A stretch of 46,248 nucleotides of DNA, from positions 1 through 46,248 of the IMG/VR virus record IMGVR_UViG_3300032163_000001; one strand, given 5' to 3'. The DNA comes from a virus. Below, piece by piece: positions 12,193 to 37,230 of this stretch. The first letter of the stretch is position 1. Each line of letters starts with the position of its first letter. Position numbers and translations under genes: made by a program. The notes below the pieces were generated by a model. It saw only the letters and a program-made list of their open reading frames with translations, was not told where the DNA came from and did no database searches.

Positions 12193-12853
12193 CATTAGTG
12201 AGATAACTAATATTAATGAAATAATAGAAAGTCCTACTAACTTCCAAATCCATAGTGATGTAAAGAATCTAGAACTTTATACTGAAGATTATCCCTTTAA
12301 ACTTTCTCTTAGAATTAAGAACTTTACAGACGAATCTAGCTATGTAAGGTTTGTTAGAAATTGTGAGAAGTTATTTAGAACCTGTTTAGAATATAGATTA
12401 TGGAAGAACTATATAACAGATGTTTTGAGATTTAATACATGTATGATTACTAATGAAAAAATGGATGAGGTCAACATTGAAATTCACCACCATGTTCCAT
12501 CGTTGTTTATTTTAATGAAAACTTTAGTTAATGAATGTATAGATACCACTTCACCTTTTTCAACATTTGATATTTGTCTTAAAGCTATAGAAGTACATTT
12601 TTCTAATAAAATTGGATTTATTCCTTTACTTAGTAGTATACATGAAAAGTTTACCAATGGATATTTAGATATTCCAATTGAACTTATAAAAGGTAACTAT
12701 AAAGAATTTTTGAGTTCGTATGCTAAATTTATATCTGAGGAAGATATGGATGTAATTAATAAACGATTAGCTACTAATTTTCAGAACTATAATGCAACTA
12801 ACTGGAAAAAAGATGAATACCCTGGAATTGAAAATGCTAGAACGAATTTGTAA
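12176..12853 (+). CDS. hypothetical protein
   Basis: ORF with a GAGGAG ribosome-binding site before the ATG at 12176. The track start at 12164 is also possible. Confidence 0.4.
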   Translation: MEEVNNISEITNINEIIESPTNFQIHSDVKNLELYTEDYPFKLSLRIKNFTDESSYVRFVRNCEKLFRTCLEYRLWKNYITDVLRFNTCMITNEKMDEVNIEIHHHVPSLFILMKTLVNECIDTTSPFSTFDICLKAIEVHFSNKIGFIPLLSSIHEKFTNGYLDIPIELIKGNYKEFLSSYAKFISEEDMDVINKRLATNFQNYNATNWKKDEYPGIENARTNL

Positions 12854-13508
12854 TTATGGGTGTGGACAAGTAGCTAAATACCAATTTAAGAATGGTAAAT
12901 GGTGCTGCAGTCAGAAGTGGCAGTTTTGTGAAGGGATAAAAAAGAAAATAAGTGAGAAAAATACTGGAAAAGTTCGAACTTTAGAAGCTAGAAAAAAATT
13001 ATCTCAAAGTCACTTAAGTCAAAAGTCACGTAAAAAAGGTAAAACTTACGAGCAATTTTATGGAGTAGAGAAAGCAAAAGAAGTTAAAAAGAAGTCAAGT
13101 GAAAGTCATAAAGGAAAACCCGTAAATTTATCTGAAGATGGAAGAAAAAGAAAAATAGATTGGATGAAAAATGGAGGTTCTGTTTATATAAATTCGTTCA
13201 ATAAAAATCCATCAAGTCAAGAGATTGATCTTAGGAAAATAGTTTTAGAACTATATGTAACTGCCAAACCCCAGTACAAAGTTCTAAACTATTCTATAGA
13301 TATAGCTTTAGTTGAGTATAAAATATCTATTGAGTATGATGGTTGGTATCATTTTGATTGTCAAGAACATGTAGATTATCACAAAAAGAGACAAGAAGAA
13401 ATTGAAGGAGAAGGTTGGAAGTTCTTAAGATATAACATTTTTCAACCATTTCCAATAAAAGAACAAGTTGAAAGAGATATACAGAGGTTAAAATGTCAGT
13501 TACAATAG
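12813..13508 (+). CDS. homing endonuclease-like protein, paralogue of 6806-7510
   Basis: Same architecture as 6806-7510: CNYGCG...GKWCCSQKWQFC, KKLSQSHLSQ NUMOD3-like motif, C-terminal IEYDGWYHF. The start is ambiguous between 12792, 12813 and 12834. Confidence 0.5.
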   Translation: MNTLELKMLERICNYGCGQVAKYQFKNGKWCCSQKWQFCEGIKKKISEKNTGKVRTLEARKKLSQSHLSQKSRKKGKTYEQFYGVEKAKEVKKKSSESHKGKPVNLSEDGRKRKIDWMKNGGSVYINSFNKNPSSQEIDLRKIVLELYVTAKPQYKVLNYSIDIALVEYKISIEYDGWYHFDCQEHVDYHKKRQEEIEGEGWKFLRYNIFQPFPIKEQVERDIQRLKCQLQ

Positions 13509-15646: not shown

Positions 15647-16365
15647 TGGGATTAATTAGATCATCAATATGTGACGCAATTTCAAGTCAATTAGAAGACT
15701 TAATTCAAGAAGTTGAGAACTTTAGATATATAGCACAAAGTCAAATAGACACTGTTACAAACTCACTTATTGAACTTAGAGATGCTGCAGCTTTTTCTAC
15801 GATAGAAGAAATACAACAAGCATTTTTTGATGTTCAAAATGCTCTTCAATTTATTATCCCACCAGTTGATATGTTTGATGAAATTATAGCAATAATTGAA
15901 TCATGCAGTTTTCTTAGAGCTGATTCTTTCTTTGCGAATCCAGCAATTTTAGCTTCATTTATACTTGACCAGTTAAAAAATCGTTGTATGGAAATGCTTT
16001 TTGATGTTTCGGATTTACCCGAAATACTCTTGAGTAGATTCTTAGCTGATATTGGTAACCTACTCCCATCGATGGGAGTTGATGTAGCTATTGTTAGAGC
16101 TAGACTCCTCATAGAATGTTTAACTAATGTTTGTGGAATAAATTCTACTTCATCTTTGTATAGATTAGTTTCTGTAGTACATTCAACACATGTTACCTAT
16201 ACCGGAATATTCAATCCAACTGCTTTGATGGAGTCTGTAGAAATAGAACCAACAGTTATAGGACATGTAAATTCGTCTGTAGCTATTGTTAATAATATTT
16301 ATACGTCAGTTGAAAATAATTGTAATCTAGCAATCGATTCTTTTAAAGAAAGATTTCCTACCTAA
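15646..16365 (+). CDS. hypothetical protein
   Basis: 239-aa ORF whose ATG overlaps the upstream stop. Confidence 0.4.
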   Translation: MGLIRSSICDAISSQLEDLIQEVENFRYIAQSQIDTVTNSLIELRDAAAFSTIEEIQQAFFDVQNALQFIIPPVDMFDEIIAIIESCSFLRADSFFANPAILASFILDQLKNRCMEMLFDVSDLPEILLSRFLADIGNLLPSMGVDVAIVRARLLIECLTNVCGINSTSSLYRLVSVVHSTHVTYTGIFNPTALMESVEIEPTVIGHVNSSVAIVNNIYTSVENNCNLAIDSFKERFPT

Positions 16366-16461
16366 TTTCCTACCGTTCAGTTCGATTCCATGATAGTAAT
16401 TGCAGCTCTATATATTACAATAACATAAAGAGAAAGATAACTTTAACTAAGGAGGTAAATC

Positions 16462-17913
16462 GTGATTAAATTTGAACAACTGGGACAAAAGTCGTGGAAG
16501 TTGTGTAATGATGATCAGTGTATAGAAACGCTTGAACTTTCTTCTTCCTCCATCACTAACAAGTTCTCTATTGTTACTTCATTTATTGAGAATGTTTCTA
16601 AAAGTGTTGGAGATGAATTTGACCAGTGGCTAGTTCAATTTTTGAATGTATATAAGATGGCGGATGAGAAGAGATTTTTAGTGGTAGAAGAAAATATACC
16701 TCAGATGAAAAAATTTGTTGACTCTTATATAGATTCTAAAAATGTAAATTTTAGCCAGTTTGTTGATATGAGTAAGGCGAAAAAAACTAGCATCTTGTTT
16801 TATCCAGAAGAAATAGAAAAGATTATTAGATCGTCAAGTTATCTAAAAGTATATTCGTTAGTTTCGAATTCTGAAGGACTTAAATTAGATAGTAGATTGC
16901 ATAAAAAAGTTTATAATAAGTTAGTTTCTGATCTTCTTGAAGCAGACACTGTTTTTAAAGTGTTTAACATTGTTAAAACTAAAACTTTTAGATACAATAT
17001 TTCTGATAAGTATATGTGGGATTATATTAAAATGATACAGTGTAAGTCAATAGACATATATGCTGTAGAGATTTTTAATTTTATAATGAGCAGTATCTTT
17101 ACTTTATGTGATGAAAATAGAAACCCAATTTCTTATTTTATTAGTGTAGTTGATGAATCTGTGAAATGGTTTTTGAGATCAGTATACAAAGGATCTATTA
17201 TTTATGATGATTCAGTGGCTACAGAAGATATTCAAGCGATTCATATAGATAATTTAAGAACGTATACATACAATGATACTATTGGAAGACTAGAAAAAAT
17301 CGCACATGGGAAAATTCATAATGATTTAGAGAGATCAGTTATCTCTACATTTTCTGAAGATAAAGTTGATAAAATCATTCTGGATTTTGAGAAGAGAGTT
17401 TCTAGTGTAGAACATATTTCTCCACTATGTGAATGTTTAACTTTTCCGATTTTATCAATTGTTGCGGGTGTGCCATACGAGCACTTTAAAACTCTAACAC
17501 CAGATCATTGTATTGTTCTTTCAGTTTATCTTCAGTCATTATTGAAGAAAGTTTTTAATGAAGAGTATGAAAGTTTGTTTGATATGTTGAGTTATTTTCC
17601 TGAGAAAGCGTCTGTTGTACATACGACATATAAAATGAAATTATCGAATTTGAAAGATCAATTTCTACCACAGATGAATACTTGTAAATTCTTGAAGTTT
17701 AATGATAAAGTTTATTTACATGAGATTCTATCTTATTTTGTTGGCAGGATTGCTAGAGTAGATTTTATAGATGCTGTTACAGGAAAAGGTTTGGGCGGAA
17801 TTCCTCTTAGTAAAATTGAATCTGATATGATTAAGTTTTACTCTTTGTTCTTCAGTGGAAAATTCGAGAAAGAATTCGAAGAAGTAAAAGTGCTTTTGAA
17901 TAGTGATTTTTGA
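16462..17913 (+). CDS. hypothetical protein immediately upstream of the RNAP genes
   Basis: 483-aa ORF with a GTG start and a perfect AAGGAGG ribosome-binding site. Its stop overlaps the beta-prime reading frame. Confidence 0.45.
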   Translation: MIKFEQLGQKSWKLCNDDQCIETLELSSSSITNKFSIVTSFIENVSKSVGDEFDQWLVQFLNVYKMADEKRFLVVEENIPQMKKFVDSYIDSKNVNFSQFVDMSKAKKTSILFYPEEIEKIIRSSSYLKVYSLVSNSEGLKLDSRLHKKVYNKLVSDLLEADTVFKVFNIVKTKTFRYNISDKYMWDYIKMIQCKSIDIYAVEIFNFIMSSIFTLCDENRNPISYFISVVDESVKWFLRSVYKGSIIYDDSVATEDIQAIHIDNLRTYTYNDTIGRLEKIAHGKIHNDLERSVISTFSEDKVDKIILDFEKRVSSVEHISPLCECLTFPILSIVAGVPYEHFKTLTPDHCIVLSVYLQSLLKKVFNEEYESLFDMLSYFPEKASVVHTTYKMKLSNLKDQFLPQMNTCKFLKFNDKVYLHEILSYFVGRIARVDFIDAVTGKGLGGIPLSKIESDMIKFYSLFFSGKFEKEFEEVKVLLNSDF

Positions 17914-17944
17914 GAACAAATATAAAACTACAAAAGGGATAATA

Positions 17945-20900
17945 ATGTTAAAATTCTTAGATGTAGAAAAATTCTCAAGAAATCTTTTAGCCGTAACTAA
18001 TACAGAAATGTTTACAAGAACTGGCGAGCCGCATACACAGGGACTATTCTCCGAAGCTATTTTTGGATCTATTGGAAGTTTAGATAGGAGACAAAGGTAT
18101 TCTTACATTGATTTAAATATAAAGATAATTCATCCAGAGGCCTATAGAATCCTGATACAATTAGATAGGAAAGTAGAGAAATTCTTTTCCACAGAAAGTT
18201 TGTTCTCTTCAGATAAATCAGGAAAGTTAATTGAGTCTGAAGATGGAATAACTGGCATCTCTGAATTTATTAAGATATTTCCAAAGATTTCTTTTAGAGG
18301 TGAGACTTCGGAAAGAGAGAGACTTATTAAAGTGCTTAAAGAGTCATATACCTCTAATACGTTGTTTGTTTCAAAACTCCCTGTGATACCTCCAGATCTT
18401 AGGCCAGCATATACTGACGCTAAAGGTACTAGAATAATTGATCCTTTGAACGATTTTTATATTAGAATTTTAAGAAGATCTTTTCAAGTTAGAAGTGCTG
18501 GACCAACTGGAATATTTTCTGATCTTATAAGATATGGTTTACAAAAGTCTATTAATGATTGTGATACTTTTGTTAGGACGAAAATTGGAAAGAAAGGTGG
18601 AGTAGTTAGAGATCAATTACTATCTAAAAGAGTAGATTTTTCTGGAAGAGCTGTTATTACACCAAATCCAAACTTAGCAGTTAATCAAATTGGAGTGCCA
18701 TTAAAATTAGCAGTTAGTTTATTTGAGCCATTTTTACTACACGTTTTGTTATATTCAAATAAAATAAATAAGGAAGAACTAGAAAAAGAAATAGAAAACT
18801 TTTTACATACGAGTTTATCAGTAGACTCTGTGAAAAATGTAATGAAGTCGATTAAAGCTGGTCATGAGATTCCATCTAACCTTTATGAAATCTTTTTTAA
18901 TGCTGCTGAAATGGCTATAGCTGGACGTGTTGTTCTAGCAAAAAGAGATCCAGATTTACATCCTGAGTCTATTAGATCATTCTACCCAGTTTTAACAAGA
19001 GGAAACACTTTAGAAATATGTACGTTACAAGTTGGTGGATTTAATGCAGATTTCGATGGTGATGCTATGGGAGTTTTTCATCCACTAACTAATGAAGCAC
19101 AAGGAGAAGCGAAAGAAAAGATGATGAGACCCCAAACTGGGGTAACTTATAATTCTATAGCTTTTGAACTATCGAGAGAAATGTGTGTAGGTTTGTATTT
19201 ACTAACTAAAAGTGTTCGACCCAAGAATTCTCCTATTCATGTTTCTGAAGAAGATCTAGAAAAAGCTACAGATCCTTATATAGCAGTAGTTTATAGAAAT
19301 AAGAATACTACAATGGGAAAAGCTATTGTAAATAGTTGTTTTCCAGAAGCATTTCCATTTATAGATACTTTACTAACTAGAAAAGTAGCTAATGAGTTAA
19401 TAAATTCAGTTCTAGAAAAACATGGAAATAAACAAGGAGAACAAACAGCATCAAAACTCTCTAAAGTAGGATTTAAATTTGCTACTATAATTTCTCCTAC
19501 GTTGAAATTGTCTGATCTAGAAGTTCCAGATGAGATATATAAATTAAAGGAAAAAATGAAAGGAGTTTCAATTGAACAGGCAAATGTGTTGTTAGAAAGA
19601 ATGAGAAAGATAATGGTAGTTTATTTAAAAGATACAGGATTATATAATTTAGTAGAATCTGGTTCTACTAGAGGTTGGGATCAACCAATGCAAATTCTTG
19701 TAGCAAAAGGAATTATTGCTGATCCAAAAGGTAACCTTTTAGAACCAGTGAAAAGTTCATTATCTGATGGACTTACAACTACAGAATTTTTTAGAGCGGC
19801 TGCTGGTTCTAGGAAAGGAATTATTGATAGGGTTATAAATACTTCAGATACAGGATACTTATCTAGAAAGTTAGCTTATTTTTTAAGTCCAGTAGAAATT
19901 GATCCTTTTGTAAAAGATTGTAGAACTAAAAAGACTTTGTCGTTAAAAATAGATGAAGATTTATCTAGAAGACTACATGGAAGATTTATTGAATATGGTG
20001 GAAAACTTGTAGAATTTGATCCAAATCTATTTAGGACTGGTTCGCAGATAGACTTAAGGACTCCAATATATTGTAAGAGTCCAAGAATTTGTCATATATG
20101 TTATGGGAAATTAGTAGAAAGGCATAAAACTCCTTATGTTGGAATACTAGCAGCACAAATTATTGGAGAAAGAGGAACTCAAATTATCATGAGATCTTTT
20201 CATCTAGGAGTTGCTAAAATAGTTGAGAGAAGTATACTTAAAGAAATTGCAGAAAATGAGCCAATGATATCTCTAGATAAACTATCGTCTTATTTAGTCC
20301 AAAGAGATAATAGATTAACAGCTTTAAAGAACTGTAAAGTGATAATTGATATGAATGATTATGATGTTGGTGATAGTATGGTGGTGGAAGAAGATTCTAT
20401 ACAAGTTAAAAGCTTACTAAGTCAAATTGAGTTTGATGATGTAATTTTTTATTTGATTTTAGATTTTCCATGTAACTTGTATGTAGAGAAGAAAGTTGAA
20501 GAAGGTAAAGAGAGAATTGAATTGTTTTATAAAGAGGGTTCTACAATACTAGACGTGCCAACAGAAGTTACAGAAATGAAACAACAAGTTAACTATGTGG
20601 AAAGACTTATTGGTGGAAAAGAAGTGTTTAAAGACGTTGAACATTTATATCGAAAACTATATAAAGTTTACGCGCCTCTGTCTCCAATGGATTCAGTACA
20701 TTTAGAAATTGTAATATCACAGTGTTTAAGATACAGATTAAATCCTGCTTTACCTGCACGATTAGGGAAGACGTGGGATCCAGTATTGATTAATATAAAG
20801 AAGACAATATTTTCTAGCGGATTCATGCAGGGTTTGGCTTTCGAGAACGTGAACGAAGCTATCAAGGTAGGGTTAATTTCTGAGGAAGAGATTCCACCAT

Positions 20901-20947
20901 CAATTATTGAGAAACTAATGACAACTCCGCTTGTGGGAGCTAAATAA
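17945..20947 (+). CDS. multisubunit RNA polymerase beta-prime-like subunit (unsplit)
   Basis: GLFSEAIFGS matches ERDGLFCARIFGP. VSKLPVIPPDLRP matches LPVLPPDLRP. RVDFSGRAVITP matches RVDYSGRSVI. The catalytic NADFDGDAM motif is present. AAAGSRKGIIDRVINTSDTGYLSRKL is bridge-helix-like. AAQIIGERGTQIIMRSFH is trigger-loop-like. The ATG at 17945 (AAGGG ribosome-binding site) is preferred over the GTG at 17903. Confidence 0.85.
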   Translation: MLKFLDVEKFSRNLLAVTNTEMFTRTGEPHTQGLFSEAIFGSIGSLDRRQRYSYIDLNIKIIHPEAYRILIQLDRKVEKFFSTESLFSSDKSGKLIESEDGITGISEFIKIFPKISFRGETSERERLIKVLKESYTSNTLFVSKLPVIPPDLRPAYTDAKGTRIIDPLNDFYIRILRRSFQVRSAGPTGIFSDLIRYGLQKSINDCDTFVRTKIGKKGGVVRDQLLSKRVDFSGRAVITPNPNLAVNQIGVPLKLAVSLFEPFLLHVLLYSNKINKEELEKEIENFLHTSLSVDSVKNVMKSIKAGHEIPSNLYEIFFNAAEMAIAGRVVLAKRDPDLHPESIRSFYPVLTRGNTLEICTLQVGGFNADFDGDAMGVFHPLTNEAQGEAKEKMMRPQTGVTYNSIAFELSREMCVGLYLLTKSVRPKNSPIHVSEEDLEKATDPYIAVVYRNKNTTMGKAIVNSCFPEAFPFIDTLLTRKVANELINSVLEKHGNKQGEQTASKLSKVGFKFATIISPTLKLSDLEVPDEIYKLKEKMKGVSIEQANVLLERMRKIMVVYLKDTGLYNLVESGSTRGWDQPMQILVAKGIIADPKGNLLEPVKSSLSDGLTTTEFFRAAAGSRKGIIDRVINTSDTGYLSRKLAYFLSPVEIDPFVKDCRTKKTLSLKIDEDLSRRLHGRFIEYGGKLVEFDPNLFRTGSQIDLRTPIYCKSPRICHICYGKLVERHKTPYVGILAAQIIGERGTQIIMRSFHLGVAKIVERSILKEIAENEPMISLDKLSSYLVQRDNRLTALKNCKVIIDMNDYDVGDSMVVEEDSIQVKSLLSQIEFDDVIFYLILDFPCNLYVEKKVEEGKERIELFYKEGSTILDVPTEVTEMKQQVNYVERLIGGKEVFKDVEHLYRKLYKVYAPLSPMDSVHLEIVISQCLRYRLNPALPARLGKTWDPVLINIKKTIFSSGFMQGLAFENVNEAIKVGLISEEEIPPSIIEKLMTTPLVGAK

Positions 20948-21552
20948 TGATTATCTATAAAGCTGAGAATAAAGTTAATGGTAAGGTTTATATTGGTCAA
21001 ACTATTAAGAACATTGATAAAAGAATTTCTGAACATTTAAAATCTGAATATAGTTGTGGTATTGTTTTTCGAAATGCTCTTAAAAAATATGGAATTCAGT
21101 CTTTTGAAATTTCTATTATAGATAAAGGAGAATCTAGAGAAGAACTTAATGAGAAAGAAAAATATTGGATTAAGTTTTATAATTGTAAAGTCCCAGATGG
21201 TTATAATTTGACCAATGGAGGAAATGGAATTATTGGATATATCTTTACTCCAGAGGTTAGAAAGAAAATTGGTGATTCTATTAGAGGAAAGAAAAATCCA
21301 ATTCATTCAGAATGGATGAAAAAGAATAATCCAAATAAGAAACTAGAAGTTAGAGAAAAAATGGGTAGTCCTGGAAAAAGTAATGGAAGATTTGGTAAGC
21401 ACTGGTCCGAAGAAGAAAGAAAGATGATTAGTGAAAAGACAAAACAAGGTATGAAAAATTCAAGAGCTGCGGAGAAAATAAGTAAAAAATGTAAAGGAAG
21501 AATTCCTTGGAATAAGAAACTAATAGAGGCTAACAATGGCAATAAGGTTTGA
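20947..21552 (+). CDS. GIY-YIG homing endonuclease (copy 1)
   Basis: IYKAENKVNGKVYIGQT (GIY...YIG), KYG, EKYWIKFYN...GYNLTNGG. It overlaps both the beta-prime stop (TAATG) and the beta start. Confidence 0.7.
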   Translation: MIIYKAENKVNGKVYIGQTIKNIDKRISEHLKSEYSCGIVFRNALKKYGIQSFEISIIDKGESREELNEKEKYWIKFYNCKVPDGYNLTNGGNGIIGYIFTPEVRKKIGDSIRGKKNPIHSEWMKKNNPNKKLEVREKMGSPGKSNGRFGKHWSEEERKMISEKTKQGMKNSRAAEKISKKCKGRIPWNKKLIEANNGNKV

Positions 21553-24500
21553 AAAATTTCGACTTAATACACAAACTACTGACTCATTACGTTTCGTCTT
21601 AACAGATCAGAATATAGATCGTCCATACGCACTCGTCTACTTCTCTGAAAACTCTACTTTTATTGAAGACTATCCAAAGCTAAATCTTAGACCAGTAGAT
21701 TTTAGAATTGTCCTTGTCCCCTGGTCTATTCTTCCGAAATCTTCATTAACTAAAGATATGAGAGATGAGTATAAGAAACTTGGTTTACTTGCATATTCTA
21801 GTCGATTAAAAAATATGCCAAAAAGAAGAAATATTATAATTGATATTTCTGAATATATCGCAGCGATTGATAAATATCTAAAACCCATTAATTATAGACT
21901 GCGGGCTGGAAGGTATATTATTAGTCTTTTAAAATCAGTAGCTTTTAACTGGTCTAAGGATTATGAACTAGTTTTTGTTTACTCTATAGATATCAACAAA
22001 CCTATCTTTAAAATTATTGATAGAAGAGTATTTCCGATTGTTCGAAATGTAAGAGATGAAGAGTTTCCATTTAAACATTTTATTTTATCTACTATTGGTG
22101 CATCAAGTGTAAGATATCGTCTTTTGATGAAAAATGGAAGTTTCAATTACGCATTTTTGTGGCAGTATATAAAAGCTATTACACAATCTCATAGACCTGA
22201 GATAGAAGACCATGAAACAGTTGATATTCCGAAAGTTGATAAAGACGATGATCCAGAAATAGAGTCAGCTTCACAAGATATAGTAAAACATGTAGAACCA
22301 CATGTTGACAAAAAAAATGTTCAAAAATTCAAATCTTCTATTTCTTCTTTTTTAAAGAAAGATAATAAATCACTGGATAGAGTTATTTCTAAAGAAGTTA
22401 CTCCAGAAGAAAAACAAAAGATTGCTATCGCTTCAATCCTATATAAAAGTACAGGAGACTTACAGAGAGCTAAAAGTATAGCGAAATATATTCCAACAAA
22501 AGATGTTCTTAAAGCTTTGGTAAATGTTGATAAGAAGTATGCAGATGAACTTTTACCGCGAGTTCCAACTCTTTCTACATCAGAACACCCTATAGTTAAA
22601 CTTGTTGATATTCCAGAAATTGTAGAGAAAAAAGTTCCTACTCATATTATAAGTAAGAGACAAATAGATTTTCATGAAAACTTGAAGAAAGATGTTATTT
22701 CTTCGTTCTCTACTCTTGCTAAGAAGAAAGAAGGAGCAGTAAGACTTGAGAAACTTGAAATAGAAGATAAACCAGAGAAAAGGGGAGAAGTAGAGAAGAC
22801 TGATTTAGCAACTCTAAAAGTTGTTCTAAAAGACGAATTTGGGAATGTACATAAAATTGTAATTGACATTCCTAAGATAGATCAATTTGGAACGTTTAGA
22901 GTTAATGGAATAAGACAGTGCCTTTTAAACCAAATAATTTTTTGTCCAATTACGTTTCCAAAAAGGTATGATTCAAGGTTTGAAAGTTTTTACTCACAGT
23001 TTCATATTAAAAGTAAAAGAGTTAGAGAACCATACTATTTAGAAATCTATATGGGTGGAAATATTATTCCATTACTAATTTGTTTAGGTTATGGTTTTGG
23101 ATTTGATAACGTTCTAAAAGACTATGGAATTTCTTACAAAGTTGTAGATAAAAAATCTAAGGAAGAATTTTCTAGTAAAGTAAACGAAGACAAATATATT
23201 ATATTTGAAAAGGTTGATAATGAACTTAAACAAGAATTATGTACTTCTTTTATCAAGGCAAAAGTTTGGAAATATAAAATTGATAAAGAATTTCCTAGTA
23301 GAGAATACTTCAATGATTTAATCATTAAACTAACAGGAAGAATAAATTCTACATATATGATTCAAACTAACATAGAAAATATTATAGATCCAGTAACTAA
23401 ACAAGTTTTATTGAATAAAGGTCAACCAGTAACACTAGATCAAGTTATGAGATATATGGCTTCTAAAGTAGTTACTGGTTATATAGAAGATTTGAATGAC
23501 CTTTCTTCAAGAAGAATAAGAAGTTCTGAAGTTTTAGTTCATTTACTTCAGGAACAAATAGAAGCTGCTTATACTGTTTATAGATCTCAAATTCTTTCTG
23601 GAAATAAGAGCGCTAAACTAGAGATTTCTCCAATTGCACTTATGAAAAAATTTAAACAACAAGAAATAGTTGTTAATATGGAATACTCGAATCCACTAGA
23701 AGAACTAGCTACTTTAACTAAAATTAGTCCAATAGGAAAATCAATAAGCGGTATACCAGGGAGAGAATCTGTACAAGTTAGTGCTAGAGATATTAACGAT
23801 TCGTTTTTTGGTAACATAGATCCTTTAGATACACCTGAAGGGGAAATGGTTGGGATAGTGCAGTATCTTACAGTTGATGCTAATATAACTACAAGTAGAG
23901 GTTTGTTTTTTAAGAAGTCTCTGGATGATAAAGAAAAGTCTGGAATACTTTCAACATCTAGTTCAATGATTCCATTTATTGAAAGAAATGATGGTGCTAG
24001 AGTTTTGATGGCTGATGGTCACTCAAAACAAGCTTTGCCTTTAAAGAACCCGGAATCTCCAATAGTACAATCAGGTTATGAATCAGTTCTCACAAGGTCT
24101 TTATCTGACAACTTTTTAAAACCATCTCCGTGTGATGGAGTTGTCCAGAATATTACAAATGATAGTATTACGATAGAATGTAAAGATGGAGAAAAAGAAA
24201 GTGTTGATATTACACCAAGGTATCTAAGATCTGGAACTGGGAAAGATACTTTAAGTGTTTTTAATGTTAAAGTTGAAAAGAATCAGAAAGTTAGAAAAAA
24301 TCAAATACTTGCAGAAGGTGCGTGTATTTCTAATGGTATGATTTCTTTAGGAAGAACTTTGTGTGTTGCGATAATGAATTATAAAGGATATAATTTTGAA
24401 GATGGAATAGTAGTTAGTGAAAAACTGATAAGTGAAGAAAAATTGACATCTCTGCATGGAGAAGAGATTGATGTATGGGTTTCTGAGAAAGATAGAATTT

Positions 24501-25690
24501 TGTTTGTAAATTCAATTGGGACTGTTACTGAAAGAGGAGATGCTCTTTTAAGAAAGACTAGAGGTGAGATAGAAGAACTTCTTGGTTATACTGAAGAAGT
24601 TGAAGATGAATCAGTTTATATATCAGGCCGAGAATTTATGAAGAAAAGTCCAGGTGGTGTAATTGTAGATATTGAAGTATTTACGAATGTTAAATCAGAA
24701 AGATTTCCATTACTTAAAGATTTAATTGAAAGAACTTCTAGAAAATATAGAAAACCTTCTGCTGATCCATTTACAATTAAAGGAGAAAGGATAAATGGAG
24801 TTTTAGTTCGATTTAGAGTAGAGCAAGAACTAAAGATAACTCTAGGAGATAAGATTTGTAATAGATATGGAAATAAAGGAATTATTTCTTTAATAGAAAA
24901 ATCTGAGTATATGCCTAGAACTCCATGGGGAGAAGAGGTTGATATTATATTGAACCCTCTTGGTTTAGTAAGTAGGATGAATATTGGTCAGTTATTTGAA
25001 ATATATTGTGGACTTATCTCTAAAGCTTTAGCTATAAAAATTGTAGAAAGTAATGACCAAAATAGAGCTGTAGAAGGTTTAAGAAGAACTCTCCCACTTC
25101 TAGATGGAACAACTAAAAAAATATATAGTAGTAGTTTAATACAAAGTATATCTAGACTTACAAAAGCAGATTTTTCTAGACTTATAGATAGTATTACGAA
25201 AACGAAGTTCTTTCCAATTATAATACCTCCATTTCAATCACCTAAACTACAAGATATTAAGAAATGCTTAAAAGCTTTGGGTTTAGATGATGGATATCAT
25301 TTGACATTACCAGAGTTCGCGACTAAAACTTCTGAGAAAGTCCCAGTGGGGTATATGTATATTTACAAGTTAGAACATCTTGGAGAGTTAAAGATTTACG
25401 GTCGTTCTACAGGGATTGTTTCTGGCAAAGTTATGCAACCTGTTTCTGGAAGAAGGTTAGAAGGAGGACAAAAGATAGGAGAAAATGATACCTATTCATT
25501 ATTCTCATATAATTGTCCAATTTTGTTAAGTGAACTCTTTGGGCCATTGTCGGATGATCATACTACAAAGAATGAGATCATTTCTGATATAATTCATACT
25601 GGTGGAGCTAAGTATAGAGAAGCGAAAGTTTCGCCGGTTAAAGATCTCTTGAACGCCTATCTCGTATCTCTTATGTTAGCTCCGAAGTGA
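21536..25690 (+). CDS. multisubunit RNA polymerase beta-like subunit with a roughly 440-aa N-terminal extension
   Basis: QFGTFRVNGIRQ matches GTFVINGTERV. DPLDTPEGEMVG matches PIETPEGPNIG. RNDGARVLMADGHSKQA matches ANDANRALMGANMQRQA. GDKICNRYGNKGIISLI...VDIILNPLGLVSRMNIGQLFE matches GDKMAGRHGNKGVIS...VDIVLNPLGVPSRMNIGQ. Confidence 0.85.
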   Translation: MAIRFEKFRLNTQTTDSLRFVLTDQNIDRPYALVYFSENSTFIEDYPKLNLRPVDFRIVLVPWSILPKSSLTKDMRDEYKKLGLLAYSSRLKNMPKRRNIIIDISEYIAAIDKYLKPINYRLRAGRYIISLLKSVAFNWSKDYELVFVYSIDINKPIFKIIDRRVFPIVRNVRDEEFPFKHFILSTIGASSVRYRLLMKNGSFNYAFLWQYIKAITQSHRPEIEDHETVDIPKVDKDDDPEIESASQDIVKHVEPHVDKKNVQKFKSSISSFLKKDNKSLDRVISKEVTPEEKQKIAIASILYKSTGDLQRAKSIAKYIPTKDVLKALVNVDKKYADELLPRVPTLSTSEHPIVKLVDIPEIVEKKVPTHIISKRQIDFHENLKKDVISSFSTLAKKKEGAVRLEKLEIEDKPEKRGEVEKTDLATLKVVLKDEFGNVHKIVIDIPKIDQFGTFRVNGIRQCLLNQIIFCPITFPKRYDSRFESFYSQFHIKSKRVREPYYLEIYMGGNIIPLLICLGYGFGFDNVLKDYGISYKVVDKKSKEEFSSKVNEDKYIIFEKVDNELKQELCTSFIKAKVWKYKIDKEFPSREYFNDLIIKLTGRINSTYMIQTNIENIIDPVTKQVLLNKGQPVTLDQVMRYMASKVVTGYIEDLNDLSSRRIRSSEVLVHLLQEQIEAAYTVYRSQILSGNKSAKLEISPIALMKKFKQQEIVVNMEYSNPLEELATLTKISPIGKSISGIPGRESVQVSARDINDSFFGNIDPLDTPEGEMVGIVQYLTVDANITTSRGLFFKKSLDDKEKSGILSTSSSMIPFIERNDGARVLMADGHSKQALPLKNPESPIVQSGYESVLTRSLSDNFLKPSPCDGVVQNITNDSITIECKDGEKESVDITPRYLRSGTGKDTLSVFNVKVEKNQKVRKNQILAEGACISNGMISLGRTLCVAIMNYKGYNFEDGIVVSEKLISEEKLTSLHGEEIDVWVSEKDRILFVNSIGTVTERGDALLRKTRGEIEELLGYTEEVEDESVYISGREFMKKSPGGVIVDIEVFTNVKSERFPLLKDLIERTSRKYRKPSADPFTIKGERINGVLVRFRVEQELKITLGDKICNRYGNKGIISLIEKSEYMPRTPWGEEVDIILNPLGLVSRMNIGQLFEIYCGLISKALAIKIVESNDQNRAVEGLRRTLPLLDGTTKKIYSSSLIQSISRLTKADFSRLIDSITKTKFFPIIIPPFQSPKLQDIKKCLKALGLDDGYHLTLPEFATKTSEKVPVGYMYIYKLEHLGELKIYGRSTGIVSGKVMQPVSGRRLEGGQKIGENDTYSLFSYNCPILLSELFGPLSDDHTTKNEIISDIIHTGGAKYREAKVSPVKDLLNAYLVSLMLAPK

Positions 25691-25703
25691 TAAGGAAGAA
25701 TAG

Positions 25704-26378
25704 ATGATTATTTATAAAGCTGAGAATAAAGTTAATGGAAAGATTTATGTTGGTGAAACATTACATAAATTAGAAACTAGAATTCATGACCATTTTAGGA
25801 TGGGAGGATCACCCGTTTTCTATAATGCTCTTAAGAAATATGGAATTCAAAATTTTAGTATCTTAGTAATAGATACAGCTAAATCTATAAAAGAACTTAA
25901 TGAAAAAGAGAAGTACTGGATCAAATTCTATAATTGTAAAGTTCCAAATGGATATAATTTGACTGATGGTGGAGATGGAATCACTGGATATATTCATACT
26001 CCGGAAGCAAGAAAGAAGATAAGTGAAAAATTGAAGGGAAGAAAAAGAGAATATATGGTAGGAGATAACAATCCAATGAAAAGACCAGAAGTCAGAAAGA
26101 AAGTTAGTAATTCGCAGAAAGTCTATATGAGTAAACCAGAGGCAAAACAAAAAGTTAGTGAAAAATTAAGAAATAGAAAATTTTTAGATGAACATAAAGA
26201 AAAATTGAGAAGACCTAGATCACAAGAATCAAAGAAAAGAATGAGTGAATCAAGAAGAGGAAAAGTTCCTTGGAATAAAGGTTTAACAAAAGAAACTGAC
26301 GAAAGAGTTAAAAAATATTGTGATTTAAATAAGAACAGATATCAGTTAAATGAAATAAAAATTTTAGCACCAAAATAG
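25704..26378 (+). CDS. GIY-YIG homing endonuclease (copy 2)
   Basis: IYKAENKVNGKIYVGET, KYGIQNF, EKYWIKFYNCKVPNGYNLTDGG. The first 40 nt are nearly identical to copy 1. Confidence 0.7.
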   Translation: MIIYKAENKVNGKIYVGETLHKLETRIHDHFRMGGSPVFYNALKKYGIQNFSILVIDTAKSIKELNEKEKYWIKFYNCKVPNGYNLTDGGDGITGYIHTPEARKKISEKLKGRKREYMVGDNNPMKRPEVRKKVSNSQKVYMSKPEAKQKVSEKLRNRKFLDEHKEKLRRPRSQESKKRMSESRRGKVPWNKGLTKETDERVKKYCDLNKNRYQLNEIKILAPK

Positions 26379-26386
26379 GAGAAACA

Positions 26387-26980
26387 ATGGATCCAGAGAA
26401 AATTCTTTTAGGATCTTCATTTCCATTGTATGAAATCGAAGAGGATTTCGACAGAGACGTTGAGAAAGAAGCGTCTTTAAAATATGATCTTTTGAATATA
26501 GTAAATTCTGTTGGAACTGACGACTTTAAAGATTGTTATTTAATGTCGATCAATTCTATAAAAGATAGTTCAATAGATATTCAACAAGTTTTTTGTAATG
26601 AACTACTGGAAAAAGTTAGAGAAATATATGATTATGAGTTTCCAGTTAAACTAGATTTTAGCGAAAGTACCATCCTAGATTTCTATAAATTTATGGAATT
26701 TGTAGAGTTTGACTACCTTGATTTTTTATCGAAGTTGTGGAGGATTATGAGTCAAGATTTAAAGAGTTTACATGTAGTTGATTTTTGTAGATCTAGCTCT
26801 TTCGAAATAGTTAAGGAGGTTGACGATATAGTAGAAACAAGTTCTTTTCCAAAGTTAGTTTCTATTTTCTGCAGAACATATACAAAAGATAATTTGGTTG
26901 AATTTATTATTAAAAAGACTGTTAGAGATAGAATGTTGATAGTTTTAGAAATCAAGGAAGGAGAAGAGAAAAATGGATAA
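26387..26980 (+). CDS. acidic hypothetical protein
   Basis: 197 aa, Asp/Glu-rich, with a ribosome-binding site. Confidence 0.45.
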   Translation: MDPEKILLGSSFPLYEIEEDFDRDVEKEASLKYDLLNIVNSVGTDDFKDCYLMSINSIKDSSIDIQQVFCNELLEKVREIYDYEFPVKLDFSESTILDFYKFMEFVEFDYLDFLSKLWRIMSQDLKSLHVVDFCRSSSFEIVKEVDDIVETSSFPKLVSIFCRTYTKDNLVEFIIKKTVRDRMLIVLEIKEGEEKNG

Positions 26981-27230
26981 AGGAGAATTCACTGTAACTA
27001 TTAAGAGAGGAAGTATAAATATAAGTACTGATAGAACTGACTTGATTGTGATTGATCAGACTCATGATGGTATAGCATTCAGTTTTAAGTATGGAATTCA
27101 TATTCAAGTAACTGATCAATTTATGCCAACAGAAACGAAAGATCGAATCAAAGCTGCAGACTCTCTTCCAAAAGGAAACATAGTATTTGATCTTAATAAC
27201 TATAATAAACCAGTTCATATAGTACTTTAG
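26973..27230 (+). CDS. hypothetical protein
   Basis: 85-aa ORF with a GAAGGAGAAG ribosome-binding site. Confidence 0.35.
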   Translation: MDKGEFTVTIKRGSINISTDRTDLIVIDQTHDGIAFSFKYGIHIQVTDQFMPTETKDRIKAADSLPKGNIVFDLNNYNKPVHIVL

Positions 27231-27600
27231 TTTTCCGTGAATTTAGGGGTAACTATATATATTAATTACTGGATAGAGGAAATAGTTTTATATTTTTTAA
27301 CGTAACTTTTTCCTTTGTCTATGCCCCTCCTAGTGCGACCAGTAAGATTTAACTTCTACTTTAGTTTTTAGAGAAGTCTTTGATCGAGACTTCTATGCTG
27401 CAGGAGAGATAATATTATTCTCTTGTAGAAGTTGAGTCTTATTGAATCGCAAACTTTAAAAACACTGTTTAAAACATTTTTTGTTATCAATTTTTTGTTA
27501 TTCTTCTCTTTTGTTATTTACGTATATATTACGTTTCTAAAAATCTTAAGTAAGAAAGGAGGTATAAAATGATCTAAAAGGGCTGGAGAAAGGAGGGCGA

Positions 27601-27837
27601 ATGGGGAGTGTAGCGTTTGGTATAGAACAGGATGAAGCTTTGAAAAAGACAAGAAGGAGGATAGTAGATGCGATAAGAAAAACAAAAGATAAAAGTATAA
27701 TTATAGCAGTTGCGAAGTTTCTTGGAGTAGATGATCAAAGTATTCATTTGAGTAAACTAGAAAGAGAACATTTAATAGCGAAACTAGTAATCATAGTTAT
27801 TCAAGGAGGCGTCTTATTTTATTTTAATAGTCTTTGA
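27601..27837 (+). CDS. hypothetical small protein
   Basis: 78 aa with an AAAGGAGGG ribosome-binding site. It lies inside a long, mostly noncoding region. Confidence 0.3.
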   Translation: MGSVAFGIEQDEALKKTRRRIVDAIRKTKDKSIIIAVAKFLGVDDQSIHLSKLEREHLIAKLVIIVIQGGVLFYFNSL

Positions 27838-27901
27838 AATCTTTATATAAGCACAGCTGTAGTTTAGCACTGCTTTTACAAAAGGTTATGCACCGCTAGT
27901 A

Positions 27902-27961
27902 GTCATTAGCACGGCTTAACTTACCTACCTAGAAGTAGGAGGTTAAGCAAGTGCTAATGAC
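27902..27961 (+). terminator. long imperfect hairpin (11+7 bp stem) followed about 20 nt later by a T7 run; terminator-like or regulatory
   Basis: gtcattagcac-g-gcttaac ... gttaagc-aa-gtgctaatgac, then gttttttt at 27981-27988. Confidence 0.3.
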
Positions 27962-28009
27962 CTGAAGTTTGCTTCTTAACGTTTTTTTGTTTCAATTTTG
28001 GGAGGAAGT

Positions 28010-29582: not shown

Positions 29583-30836
29583 ATGATGGCTAGCGGCTCA
29601 GCTCAGAAAGAGTCTTTTAAAGAACAGAAATATTTCGAAAGGTTAAATATTACATGTACTTCAATTTCTAAAGTTAAACAACTAATTAAAGATAATATAA
29701 AAAATACTATTAATTGTTGGAATAATGGAAGACCTGTTGAAAAACAAACGTTTCATATGATTGGACCAGCTGGAGTAGGGAAGACGAAGATATGTTATCA
29801 AATAGCAGAAGAACTTGGAAAAGAATTGGAAACTGATTTTTCAGTGAAGATGATTAAAGCTCCTGTTCTTTCGAGAGACGATTTTATCATTCCATTTCCA
29901 ATCATAGATAATGGTAATACATCATTTAAAATGTTGTATTCAGATTTCGTTCCTAAAGACCCTGATAGTTATGGATTATTTGTTATTGATGAATGTGGTA
30001 GAGGGGATCATGCTTTACAACAGTTGATGTGGCAAGTACAGAATGAATGTAAAGTTCATTTACTGGATTTCCCTAAAGGATGGTTTGTTATAGCAACAGA
30101 TAATCCAGACGATAGAGAATACAGCATGGATATTATAGAAGATGCAGCAGGACTTAGAAGAATGCTACATGTCTATATATCAGTGTCTTCTAGAGATTTC
30201 CTTTCTTATGCAAAAGAATATGGATTTCATAAATATGTAGTTCAGTTTATAGAAGCTCACCCAGAATTTCTTTACGATTTTGAGTCACAAAAACTTGGAG
30301 CTGTTTATGCAAATCCAGCAAGTTGGGAAAAAGTTTCTACAATTTTATGGTCTTATGATATAAAAGACAAAGTTTTACTACATTTAGAGGACGTAGAAAT
30401 TTTGCTATCTGGTCTTCTTAATACTAGTAAAACAAGACTTTTTGTAGAATTCTTGAAAGCTAAAAAGATTATTAAACCTGATGATATTGTTCATGATTAC
30501 GTGTCTATTAGGTCTGATATTCTAGAACTTGTTGAATCTGGAGATAATGCTTCTCTTTCTGAAATAATGAATTCGTTCTTAACTTATTTGAATGATAATA
30601 AACCTGATAGGGGAAAAGCAGAACTAAAGAATATTGGAGCATTTCTAACAGATATTCCAATAGACACAGCTTCAATTTTAGTATCGTATGTTTATAAGTG
30701 TCCTACAAATTCTCCAGGATACAAATATTTTACAACTTTACATGTTGACCTTATGAAAGTGAATAAAGATTATCAACAGAAGTTTTACAACAATCTTGTA
30801 GATTTGTCGAAAAGGGCTACTGGAGAAAACAAATGA
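29583..30836 (+). CDS. MoxR/McrB-like AAA+ ATPase
   Basis: Walker A GPAGVGKT. Walker B FVIDECGRG, matching the DE-x-x-R pattern of DEINRA in MoxR/McrB. Sensor-1-like ATDNP. It is adjacent to and overlaps the von Willebrand A gene. Confidence 0.6.
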   Translation: MMASGSAQKESFKEQKYFERLNITCTSISKVKQLIKDNIKNTINCWNNGRPVEKQTFHMIGPAGVGKTKICYQIAEELGKELETDFSVKMIKAPVLSRDDFIIPFPIIDNGNTSFKMLYSDFVPKDPDSYGLFVIDECGRGDHALQQLMWQVQNECKVHLLDFPKGWFVIATDNPDDREYSMDIIEDAAGLRRMLHVYISVSSRDFLSYAKEYGFHKYVVQFIEAHPEFLYDFESQKLGAVYANPASWEKVSTILWSYDIKDKVLLHLEDVEILLSGLLNTSKTRLFVEFLKAKKIIKPDDIVHDYVSIRSDILELVESGDNASLSEIMNSFLTYLNDNKPDRGKAELKNIGAFLTDIPIDTASILVSYVYKCPTNSPGYKYFTTLHVDLMKVNKDYQQKFYNNLVDLSKRATGENK

Positions 30837-32095
30837 GTAAAGATTCAGATGAGGTTATGAAAAAAGTTATTGCTGTACTTATGTTAAAAGGATCATATTG
30901 GGGGTTTTTATTTTCTAGAATAAAGAGAGTGGGAAATACATCTTTACCATATTCGATGGGTGTAGCAAGTGATTCAGATAGTACAGTTATTTTGTACTAC
31001 AACCCAGATTTTATTAGTGAAGAAGATTTTAAAGTTCTGGAAAGTTTAGTAGAACATGAAGGAATGCATCTTTTAAATGACCATATTCCAAGAATGTATC
31101 GTTTGTTAGATTCAGAATACGATAAAGAGAAGAGACGATCAGTTCAAGAAATTTTTAATCTAGCAGGCGATTGTGCTGTAAATTCTGTTATAAATATTCC
31201 AAAAATTATTACTTTAAAAGGAAACGATTATACTCTTGTTTTTCCAGAACGATTTAATTTGCCAGATAAACAAAGCGCAGAGTTCTATTTCTTTGAGATA
31301 ATGAAACAGTCGAAGAAGGTATCTGGTAAAAAAGAAATTGGTGTTGTATCTGGTTGTACCAAAAATCATGAGAAATGGACAGATAATAAAGTTTCAGACC
31401 CAGTTTCTTTTTCTAGAAAAGTAGAGGCATTTATTCAAGATATTGCAAAAGAATCTTTTAATGAATGTCAATCTAGAGGAACAGTTCCAGGTTATATTTC
31501 CCAGATGATTCAACAACTATTGGAACCTCCTAAACTTCCTTATTATCAAATAATTAGAAAACTAGTTCGAAGCTCTAGAATCGGTAAATTTAAATCATCT
31601 TCAACAAGAATCAATAGAAAAAGAACATATGTTTTTGTTACTAACCAAAAAAATGTACCTGAAATATCTCCATTTCCAGGTAGAGTAAGAGACTACACAT
31701 TTAAGATTGGAGTGTTAATTGATGTATCTGGAAGCATGAATATAGAAAAAGTATGTGAAGGACTTTCTGGTGTTAGAAATCTTATTGAGAATGATAGAAA
31801 TTGTACAACAATAGTTATTGAAGTAGATACAGTTGTTCAGAAAGAATATCGAGTTAAGAGAATTGATGATATTCAATTTAATATTAAAGGTAGAGGTGGG
31901 ACTATATTATTTCCAGCCCTGCAAAGGTTTAAAGAACTAAAAACAGATGTTGTTTTGGGTTTTACTGATGGATATTGCGAAAATATTAATATGATTGATA
32001 GAAAACTTTTACCAAAGAGAATTATTTGGGTTGTTTTAAGTGGAACAGAAGAGAATTTAGATAAAACAGGGTTTGTAATTAATTTAAAGGGATAA
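30833..32095 (+). CDS. protein with an N-terminal HExxH metallopeptidase-like domain and a C-terminal von Willebrand A domain (DUF2201-like architecture)
   Basis: VEHEGMHLLNDH contains the HExxH motif. LIDVSGSMN is the MIDAS DxSGS motif. Downstream FTDG matches the von Willebrand A TDG. The ATGA overlaps the ATPase stop. Confidence 0.6.
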   Translation: MSKDSDEVMKKVIAVLMLKGSYWGFLFSRIKRVGNTSLPYSMGVASDSDSTVILYYNPDFISEEDFKVLESLVEHEGMHLLNDHIPRMYRLLDSEYDKEKRRSVQEIFNLAGDCAVNSVINIPKIITLKGNDYTLVFPERFNLPDKQSAEFYFFEIMKQSKKVSGKKEIGVVSGCTKNHEKWTDNKVSDPVSFSRKVEAFIQDIAKESFNECQSRGTVPGYISQMIQQLLEPPKLPYYQIIRKLVRSSRIGKFKSSSTRINRKRTYVFVTNQKNVPEISPFPGRVRDYTFKIGVLIDVSGSMNIEKVCEGLSGVRNLIENDRNCTTIVIEVDTVVQKEYRVKRIDDIQFNIKGRGGTILFPALQRFKELKTDVVLGFTDGYCENINMIDRKLLPKRIIWVVLSGTEENLDKTGFVINLKG

Positions 32096-34854: not shown

Positions 34855-35258
34855 AAATTGCTATTGTAGGAGCAGATGGAAAGAAATGGGGAAGTCTTGG
34901 AAAAGTTAGTAAATCTAACTTTCTTATAATTGTTGCTAAACAACTAATTGAGAAAATCTTGAAAGATAATCCTGGTTGCACTTTGGTTTCAGGGGCTTGT
35001 CCAACAGGGGGAGTTGATATCTGGGCGGAAGAAGTAGCAGATAAACTTGGAGTTCCCAAAGAAATCTATCCTCCTCGTATAAACAAATGGGAAGGTTATA
35101 AAGAAAGAGATATCAAAATAGCAAAGGCATGTGATAAACTTGCGTGTATTGAACCCTATAGAAGAAATCATTCTGGCGGAATGTGGACCATGAATTATGC
35201 GAGTAAATTAGGGAAACCAGTCAAGTTATTTGTGATTAAAGAAATGTTAGATAATTAG
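34851..35258 (+). CDS. DprA/Smf-like (SLOG-type Rossmann) protein
   Basis: IAIVGADG...LVSGACPTGGVDIWAEEVADKLG resembles the DprA core (SGlArGIDaaAHrgAL). Confidence 0.35.
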   Translation: MKIAIVGADGKKWGSLGKVSKSNFLIIVAKQLIEKILKDNPGCTLVSGACPTGGVDIWAEEVADKLGVPKEIYPPRINKWEGYKERDIKIAKACDKLACIEPYRRNHSGGMWTMNYASKLGKPVKLFVIKEMLDN

Positions 35259-35271
35259 TGTAGATAAAATT

Positions 35272-35531
35272 CTTAAGTAGATCTAGTTAAGGAGGTAGGC
35301 CTAACAGCAGTCATCCTTTAAAGAGTGACGATAGGTAGTGAAGGGGAGGCACACTTAAACCAATGATCCTGACGAAAAAGAAAACTTGCAACGGGGATTG
35401 AGCAAGTGGATGCCTACGGTATAGCGGCAAAGTTCAGTACGTTCAGATTTGGTCGTCCTCATCCAGGTTTGAACGTGAGTTAGCTGGATGCTCCCGTCTT
35501 AGTCTTTGGCGTAGCAGCACACTTTTCTAGA
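35272..35531 (+). other. GC-rich noncoding island (about 230 nt) closed by a perfect 15-bp inverted repeat; candidate structured RNA or MITE-like element
   Basis: CTTAAGTAGATCTAG at 35272-35286 and its reverse complement at 35517-35531. The interior is visibly GC-richer than the flanks and has no ORF. It contains the internal hairpin CATCCAG...CTGGATG. Confidence 0.35.
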
Positions 35532-35567
35532 TCTACTTAAGTTAAATAAAAAGGAAAGGAGAAAAAC

Positions 35568-36578: not shown

Positions 36579-36599
36579 AATTATAGATGGAGAAATAAA

Positions 36600-36893: not shown

Positions 36894-36941
36894 AGGAGAA
36901 AGTGAGAAAGTGAGATTAGAAGTTCATCTGGAGATAATAAA

Positions 36942-37157: not shown

Positions 37158-37230
37158 AAATACTATAACTGATTATTGTAGAAGATGGAAAAAGAATATC
37201 TAAGATTTAAAATAGAAAGGAGAAAGGATC

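Follow-up and report, generated by a model that had tools for sequence, protein, structure and literature searches.

Unsplit β and β′ subunits of a multisubunit RNA polymerase have been reported from 97 metagenomic Caudovirales contigs, which form the 'mReC' clade (Weinheimer & Aylward 2020, Nat Commun 11:4506; PMC7481178), and from the mReC polymerases it has been argued that phage RNA polymerase arose very early, before the bacteria. The split enzymes of the jumbo phages were omitted from that analysis as too diverged. In the non-virion polymerases of AR9 (gp105, gp089, gp270, gp154 and gp226; 7S00 and 7S01) and phiKZ (with gp68; 7OGP), β and β′ each consist of two polypeptides and the genes are scattered; in the AR9 enzyme, promoter specificity is conferred by the sigma-like subunit gp226. 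Loss of the rudder has been described as characteristic of the AR9 and phiKZ enzymes and as a possible hallmark of jumbo-phage polymerases (PMC9209446), and the jumbo-phage virion polymerase reads AT-rich motifs of about 10 nucleotides (nt) whose centre is near −10. Here we describe a transcription operon at positions 16462–27230 of a 46,248-nt stretch of viral DNA (positions 1 to 46,248 of the IMG/VR record IMGVR_UViG_3300032163_000001), which we call the window and to which coordinates refer unless a related locus is named. Our best explanation, which we consider probable as a whole, is that the operon belongs to an uncultured, T4-like member of the mReC lineage and that it encodes a sigma-like protein together with single-chain β′ and β subunits.

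Read along the + strand, on which all of its features lie, the operon runs from an AT-rich promoter-like motif through the sigma-like gene, the β′ gene, a homing endonuclease gene, the β gene, a second homing endonuclease gene and genes for proteins of 197 and 85 amino acids (aa) to the next copy of the motif. All long open reading frames (ORFs) of the window are on this strand, including those listed in an earlier reading of the bare sequence (hereafter, the original prediction).

Bacterial-type, single-chain β′ and β subunits

The β′ ORF (17903–20947) spans 1014 aa when read from a GTG at 17903, although the true start is probably the ATG at 17945, which yields MLKFLD..., as in the relatives, and a protein of 1000 aa. 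It matches the Pfam models Rpb1_2 (1.4e-26) and Rpb1_5 (3.5e-20) above the curated cut-offs, and a phmmer search of PDB sequences returned bacterial β′ as the best match (3e-56). When five family members were aligned with E. coli RpoC, β′ was seen to keep NADFDGD, the bridge helix, both trigger-loop helices, the clamp helices and the lid, as well as all four cysteines of the second zinc site. The N-terminal zinc ribbon (E. coli C70, C72, C85 and C88) is removed by a 28-residue gap and the rudder by a 17-residue gap, each in five of five family members; the rudder gap also appears in the phmmer alignment to Thermus aquaticus β′, and we regard the rudderless state of this subunit as well supported. 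Where E. coli has SI3, the trigger loop carries an insertion of about 100 aa (residues ~782–890) that is unrelated to SI3.

The β ORF (21536–25690; 1384 aa) matches Rpb2_6 (2.5e-48) and Rpb2_3 (7e-9), again above cut-offs, and its PDB matches include bacterial β (4e-71), archaeal sequences (~1e-21) and the AR9 βC subunit (1.6e-19). The canonical portion (22631–25690) runs in one chain from the β1 lobe through the fork and flap to the C-terminal clamp and is colinear with E. coli RpoB, with the fork, NFED and GNKG present and SI2 missing. Both proteins are bacterial-type, single-chain catalytic subunits with their active-site elements intact. On this point the original prediction was accurate: it had read the NADFDGD, bridge-helix and trigger-loop motifs in β′ and the GNKG, fork and β1 motifs in β, had reported the absence of the N-terminal zinc-finger cysteines from β′, and had called both subunits unsplit and well conserved; the profile hidden Markov model (HMM) search that it proposed does match the catalytic domains of both. 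In contrast to AR9 and phiKZ, each of β and β′ is one polypeptide here and the three polymerase genes share one operon. The window subunits are also far closer to bacterial ones (E-values of 1e-56 to 1e-71, against 1e-19 for AR9 βC), and the canonical NADFDGD stands where AR9 has DYDGD.

That the best PDB matches of both subunits are bacterial would also be expected of a host rpoBC operon, lying on a bacterial chromosome or on a fragment flanking a prophage. However, identity to the bacterial subunits is only about 25%, the order β′–β is the reverse of the bacterial β–β′, and all genes share a single coding strand. The flanking genes encode baseplate wedge and gp5-like hub proteins, a UvsX-like recombinase, a Cas4-like nuclease, a RuvC-like resolvase, the large subunit of ribonucleotide reductase, both parts of a T4-type topoisomerase II, QueD, and a MoxR-like ATPase with a DUF2201/VWA partner, while ribosomal-protein, rpoA and tRNA genes were not found in the 46-kb window. 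The relatives, for their part, lie on contigs of 150–310 kb beside PAAR, gp5 and amidase genes. Given the flanking phage genes and the reversed gene order, we reject the host operon, to which we assign a negligible probability; the concern raised in the original prediction, that the contig might prove to be bacterial chromosome with ribosomal or alpha-subunit genes nearby, is answered by the same flanks.

A protein search with β′ returned at least 120 clusters at 51–71% identity, all of about 1000 aa and on contigs of up to 310 kb. Megablast of positions 16000–27000 against GenBank phages gave no match, and a scan of IMG/VR with β′ as the single query found no relative. Five related loci (L002, L003, L004, L005 and L014) have a common gene order, in which baseplate, PAAR or amidase genes are followed further on by an ORF of about 480 aa, zero to seven small ORFs, β′, β, an ORF of about 200 aa and one of about 85 aa. 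Where intact, the β of the relatives measures 1333–1384 aa, and β and β′ are single ORFs in L002, L003, L004 and L014 also. Homologues of β′ and of the sigma-like protein at 51–56% identity lie on contigs of 179636, 149482, 89573 and 20022 bp, and the same sizes occur in a portion of the mReC supplementary list, which points indirectly to the window as a member of the published mReC lineage. That portion has no entry for the 185,628-bp JGI contig to which the window belongs. As in that clade, unsplit β and β′ are detected by cellular RNA polymerase profiles on tailed-phage DNA, in the company of baseplate and wedge genes and on metagenomic contigs of 100–300 kb. The T4-like capsid (PF07068) and terminase (PF03237) markers of the clade fall outside the window, within whose 46 kb no head or terminase genes were found.

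Phages with unsplit β and β′ are already known, and the novelty that the original prediction implied for such subunits does not hold. Besides the mReC contigs, published in 2020 (PMC7481178), GenBank already contains cultured phages with a long single-chain β′ gene, such as Rhizobium phage RHph_TM30 (gp334, 3384 nt). This phage is among those that the window β′ matches over most of its span, as are Cobetia phage Carin-5, Vibrio phage 1.031.O and the Fusobacterium JD-Fnp phages, all at no more than ~24–27% identity. The mReC paper used the subunits as phylogenetic markers; the words 'sigma', 'alpha' and 'split' do not occur in its main text, and it appears silent on accessory subunits, promoters, the β extension and the loss of zinc ribbon and rudder. 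What is new, to our knowledge, is the sigma-like identity of the protein encoded ahead of β′ and the rudderless β′, both well supported, the motif that brackets the operon, and a set of head-module relatives of the β N-terminal domain, which are suggestive only.

Mobile elements were seen inside the β′ gene of some relatives. In L021 (1688–5373), an insertion of Zn-ribbon and Pyr_excise genes past the trigger loop divides β′ into pieces of 776 and 220 aa, which illustrates in nature how split polymerase subunits could arise through mobile genes. Protein P0111, a β′ homologue of 1389 aa, contains an intein domain (PF14890), another mobile element that targets this gene.

A sigma-like candidate subunit and a promoter-like motif

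The gene ahead of β′ (16462–17913) encodes a protein of 483 aa, ORF483, which is as conserved as β′ itself: 535 homologues at 48–58% identity are always about 480 aa long and always adjacent. In the distant relative L022, a homologue with 36% identity lies beside β′–β on the opposite strand. ORF483 retrieved no match from Pfam (E up to 0.01), PHROGs or PDB sequences, and its likeness to sigma-2 is at the level of the fold only, neither region 2 nor region 4 of sigma-70 being matched in Pfam. An AlphaFold2 model was generated from 45 sequences (predicted local distance difference test score, pLDDT, 79.8; predicted template modelling score, pTM, 0.52). In a fold comparison, the top match of this model was AR9 gp226 (7s01_A; 18.8 over 269 residues) and the second phiKZ gp68 (7ogp_B; 9.1), followed by many sigma-2 domains of sigma factors and by T4 gp55 (6–7.5).

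A comparison of profiles agrees with the fold. With a gp226-family alignment made from AR9, BpSp, LPJP1, Machias, SA1 and phiR1-37, hhalign matched the ORF483 family at a probability of 79% and an E-value of 1.7e-5, pairing ORF483 residues 81–245 with gp226 residues 98–265. The aligned segment spans the sigma-2-like region of gp226, which the AR9 paper places at residues 184–264, and a motif common to both families, SDxx(M/I)WxY(I/L)K, covers the '2.1bis' helix of gp226. In contrast, the uracil-specifying V206 of gp226 aligns with Y184 of ORF483. Residues 240–263 have pLDDT values below 50 and are predicted to be disordered, yet Y248, D250, T254 and E255 are invariant, and the loop is placed where gp226 has its sigma-finger-like element. 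We therefore regard it as well supported, from predicted structure and profile together, that ORF483 is a sigma-like homologue of AR9 gp226 and phiKZ gp68. Unlike the bacterial sigma-70 family and T4 gp55, ORF483 is much larger, has unrelated N- and C-terminal parts, and contains no detected helix-turn-helix sigma-4 domain. Our search of the literature turned up no report connecting mReC polymerases with gp226 or gp68.

The original prediction had proposed ORF483 as a candidate accessory subunit, which these matches bear out. Its statement that no alpha, omega or sigma homologue is visible stands for sigma only where plain sequence searches are concerned; no alpha or omega was found among the scanned ORFs of the window, which represents a quarter of the genome. 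The description of a two-gene enzyme is too narrow, as ORF483 at least would be a third component and the operon has two conserved small genes in addition. A sigma-like subunit of the gp226/gp68 fold, which is the fifth subunit of those enzymes, and a rudderless β′ are what the window has in common with the AR9 and phiKZ non-virion polymerases.

A further likeness to AR9 is an AT-rich motif of about 12 nt 5′ of the sigma-like gene. The motif CTCTATATATTA (16406–16417) lies 56 nt 5′ of ORF483, and an exact CTATATATATTA (27253–27264) lies at the start of the next transcription unit. No other site in the window matches CTATATATATTA as well as these two, which both fall in intergenic DNA on the + strand and therefore bracket one unit made up of the sigma-like, β′, β, 197-aa and 85-aa genes. 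Across six related loci (158 kb, of which intergenic DNA makes up 8%), 11 sites match CTATATATATTA with at most one mismatch; 10 of the 11 are intergenic and on the + strand, and sites recur at the same syntenic positions, including the equivalent of 27253 in L002, L003 and L004. The early-promoter consensus annotated in AR9, AAATATATATTAT, has the same core, ATATATATTA, and one annotated early promoter of AR9 stands directly 5′ of g226. Within the operon, neither sigma-70-type promoters nor intrinsic terminators show enrichment, and the + strand yielded no terminator-like site. A phage promoter-like motif in intergenic DNA, as anticipated by the original prediction, was thus recovered by searching the window and its related loci.

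These features suggest how the enzyme might work. ORF483, β′ and β would together form a holoenzyme that lacks alpha and omega and acts like the non-virion enzyme of AR9 or phiKZ. The sigma-2-like region of ORF483 (~160–245, with the SDxxMWxYIK helix) would dock on the clamp helices of β′ and on the β lobe, the conserved, unstructured loop at 244–263 (YDDSVxTEDI) may reach into the active-site cleft as a sigma finger, and the C-terminal domain would contact upstream DNA. Such an enzyme would render transcription of the phage partly independent of the host.

The N-terminal extension of β and its possible role

Ahead of the canonical β1 lobe, which begins at residue ~365–380, β carries an N-terminal extension. 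The original prediction had put this region at about 440 aa without RNA polymerase homology; the absence of homology holds, and the size is closer to 365 aa. By alignment and a structure model built on 7 sequences, the extension consists of an alpha/beta domain (residues 1–218; 21536–22189) with invariant YFSENS and YRxR motifs, which we call the N-domain, an acidic low-confidence linker (~219–238), a helical bundle (240–335) and a second low-confidence linker (337–368), the last three within 22190–22630. All relatives possess the extension, which is less conserved than the rest (32–43% identity). A tblastn search of phages with β residues 1–460 gave no match even at E up to 1, and phmmer with residues 1–218 retrieved only 65 matches from 1.84 billion representative proteins, with the domain always N-terminal.

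The N-domain occurs in three contexts. It can be fused to β, as in the window; it can be a free-standing paralogue directly 5′ of a domain-carrying β (L021, L022 and L026); or it can form a free-standing protein of 207–210 aa (E 1e-17 to 5e-12) that carries the motifs YFSENS and YRxRxG and is encoded in T4-like head modules. The order of these modules (L020, L023 and L024) is Portal_T4, an ORF of 161–200 aa, the N-domain homologue, a Peptidase_S77 prohead protease, two small ORFs and a Gp23 capsid gene. We take this to be the place that prohead-core genes 67 and 68 occupy in T4; searches of Pfam and PHROGs returned no usable match that would link the N-domain homologues to gp67 or gp68. Among + strand ORFs of 60 aa or longer, from the window and from family loci alike, an HMM search for hidden N-domain paralogues matched only β. 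In two independent assemblies (L005, ~9470, and P0246), β is frameshifted at a run of nine A residues at the end of its N-terminal region. We considered and rejected the N-domain as a separate gene there, the frameshift lying within one gene; it could be a sequencing error, or it could be programmed or transcriptional slippage that gives a free N-terminal fragment.

Because free-standing homologues of the N-domain stand between portal and prohead-protease genes, we hypothesize, with less confidence than for the operon itself, that the N-domain of β may associate with the prohead core and thereby bring the polymerase into the capsid; as support for virion packaging of the kind represented by the phiKZ and N4 virion polymerases and crAss gp66, this gene neighbourhood is suggestive only. 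If packaged in this way, the enzyme would be injected and might start at CTATATATATTA promoters, since the motif is a near match to the AR9 early promoters, which the AR9 virion polymerase reads. A comparable arrangement is found in the β-like chains of jumbo-phage virion polymerases (phiKZ gp178 type, such as KTN4_219, OBP_278 and Noxifer gp195; 1418–1454 aa), which have an extension of about 500 aa ahead of β1 and whose genes adjoin head-protein and head-protease genes. Residues 503–1169 of the window β align with these chains in one piece, and they are the top Foldseek matches of the β N-terminal model in BFVD. However, where Foldseek suggested homology of the two extensions, hhalign aligned only the canonical start of β1 (E 8e-8), the extensions themselves not being alignable. 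The virion chains also differ in ending near GNKG, their C-terminal part being a separate protein, and the N-terminal β fragment of AR9, gp105 (496 aa), has no such extension.

The main alternative to packaging is a purely non-virion enzyme, which we consider possible, if somewhat short of an even chance. The host polymerase or another phage factor would then read the AT-rich motif early, the phage enzyme would take over middle or late genes from other promoters, and the N-domain would be an assembly or dimerisation platform that replaces the alpha dimer, with no packaging signal in it. A sigma-like subunit is, after all, a hallmark of non-virion enzymes, the motif holds a −10-like TATATT, and the non-virion polymerase genes of AR9 are themselves early and driven by such motifs. 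The free-standing N-domain copies found 5′ of a domain-carrying β in L021, L022 and L026 would likewise suggest a two-copy arrangement resembling an alpha dimer. Nevertheless, no −35 element is conserved 5′ of the motif, the AR9 enzyme needs no substitute for alpha, the fold of the N-domain is unlike that of the alpha N-terminal domain, and homologues lying between portal and prohead-protease genes are hard to fit with an alpha-like role. We think it improbable that the N-domain is instead an enzyme or nucleotide sensor (a degenerate P-loop kinase/NTPase or a CARF/SAVED-like domain) that modifies the transcript, the template or a host target or regulates the polymerase: it has no Walker A motif, FSENS occupying the position of the P-loop, it lacks a Pfam or PHROG match, and its structure model was made from only 7 sequences. 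A bolder possibility, which we rate as unlikely although less so than the enzyme or sensor, is that the lineage has one undivided polymerase set in which non-virion traits (the gp226/gp68-type sigma-like subunit and the rudderless β′) are joined to a virion-like long β extension; the first domain of the extension would be a prohead-core-like loader, and the same injected enzyme would start at AR9-early-like CTATATATATTA promoters. If true, this would be the closest living model of an unsplit ancestor of the phiKZ and AR9 polymerases and a new way to target a cellular-type polymerase into a T4-like head.

Several observations weigh against our preferred account of a sigma-like, β′ and β operon with a possible loading domain, and should be noted. 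The link between ORF483 and gp226 depends on a predicted structure with a pTM of 0.52 and on a moderate profile score (79%). The motif is low-complexity and AT-rich and occurs only twice in the window; at two mismatches it is not enriched there (19 sites found, 18 expected), and the host polymerase could equally read it. As for the N-domain, its fold matches are weak, its head-module context is supplied by two clusters, whose short contigs are not tied to polymerase-encoding phages, and in three other relatives the free-standing copy adjoins β instead. A T4-type [LI]xE protease site in the linker (IPEIVE, residues ~358–363) is present in the window and not conserved in relatives, and we did not use it as evidence of packaging. 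The module of the window is also not identical to that of the relatives: a gene of ~150–190 aa directly 5′ of β′ in five of five of them (L002 9428–10000, L003 9530–9997, L004 9534–9998, L005 4984–5514 and L014 9548–10000) is missing from the window by tblastn (E up to 1e-3), and may be a dispensable or relocated accessory factor. Finally, the window covers 46 of the ~186 kb of the contig, the rest of which could encode another polymerase set, proteins resembling alpha or omega, or a sigma of the gp55 type.

Passenger genes, neighbours and the significance of the operon

On either side of β lies a free-standing gene for a GIY-YIG/NUMOD3 homing endonuclease, one of 201 aa between β′ and β (20947–21552; GIY-YIG 6e-12 in Pfam, phrog_314 3.5e-34) and one of 224 aa after β (25704–26378; Pfam and PHROGs); the two are paralogues with 50% identity. 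The β′/β site is without an endonuclease in L003, L004, L005 and L014 and holds a different insert, of 368 aa, in L002, and in L003 and L004 both GIY-YIG sites are empty. These genes are selfish mobile passengers and no part of the enzyme. Thus, β′ and β do not lie back to back, as the original prediction had it, and the end coordinate that it gave for the polymerase genes, 26378, takes in the second endonuclease gene, which it left unnamed. At least three further endonuclease-like ORFs occur at 6806–7510 (NUMOD3), 12792–13508 (weak HNH) and 39567–40649 (endonuclease plus HNH), a heavy load of selfish endonucleases as in T4.

The operon ends with two small conserved genes. The 197-aa gene (26387–26980) retrieved no Pfam or PHROG match; it follows β in all relatives, is syntenic and 28–32% identical in L002, L003 and L004, and is a candidate for a further accessory factor. 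The 85-aa gene (26973–27230), without a Pfam match, was identified by tblastn with the 87-aa protein of L004 and the 82-aa protein of L003 (36–38% identity; E 3e-19 and 4e-16). Just beyond it, ~770 nt 3′ of the second motif (27231–27997) contain no ORFs other than very short ones (46 and 78 aa), along with palindromic segments rich in GC, and may be a leader or a non-coding RNA.

Elsewhere in the window, GC content is ~0.30 throughout except in the first 2 kb, where it is locally high (0.44) because of collagen-like G-X-Y repeats (GPTGYTGAD...), which are found at 1–259 and in tail-fibre-like ORFs up to ~2935. Downstream of the operon, two genes (29583–32095) encode first a MoxR-like AAA ATPase and then a DUF2201 metallopeptidase/VWA protein, a pair kept at this place in L004 and L005; the PHROGs label 'HNH endonuclease' on the second gene looks like a misnomer. 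The two topoisomerase II subunit genes (gp39-like, 32100–33893; gp52-like, 42948–44249) are ~9 kb apart, separated by small ORFs, endonuclease genes and non-coding stretches that look structured. Three such stretches were noted: 35259–35567, with a 15-bp closing stem (z −2.2); 37762–37902, where a 12-nt inverted repeat (GGGTGAGATAGA / TCTATCTCACCC) closes the structure; and 38468–38886 (z −3.85). No Rfam family matched the window at gathering thresholds, nor 35000–39000 at E up to 1, and these stretches may be phage RNAs of a new type.

That a putative sigma-like gp226/gp68 homologue and the loss of the rudder are common to this mReC operon and the jumbo-phage enzymes suggests a common origin of the two groups. 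The operon would offer a compact, three-gene and better conserved version of the polymerases without alpha and omega, well suited to biochemistry and structural work, and its candidate promoter motif makes it possible to test directly how transcription is controlled by the phage itself. The β N-domain, with its head-module relatives, may in turn provide a handle on whether a cellular-type polymerase is packaged in a T4-like capsid.

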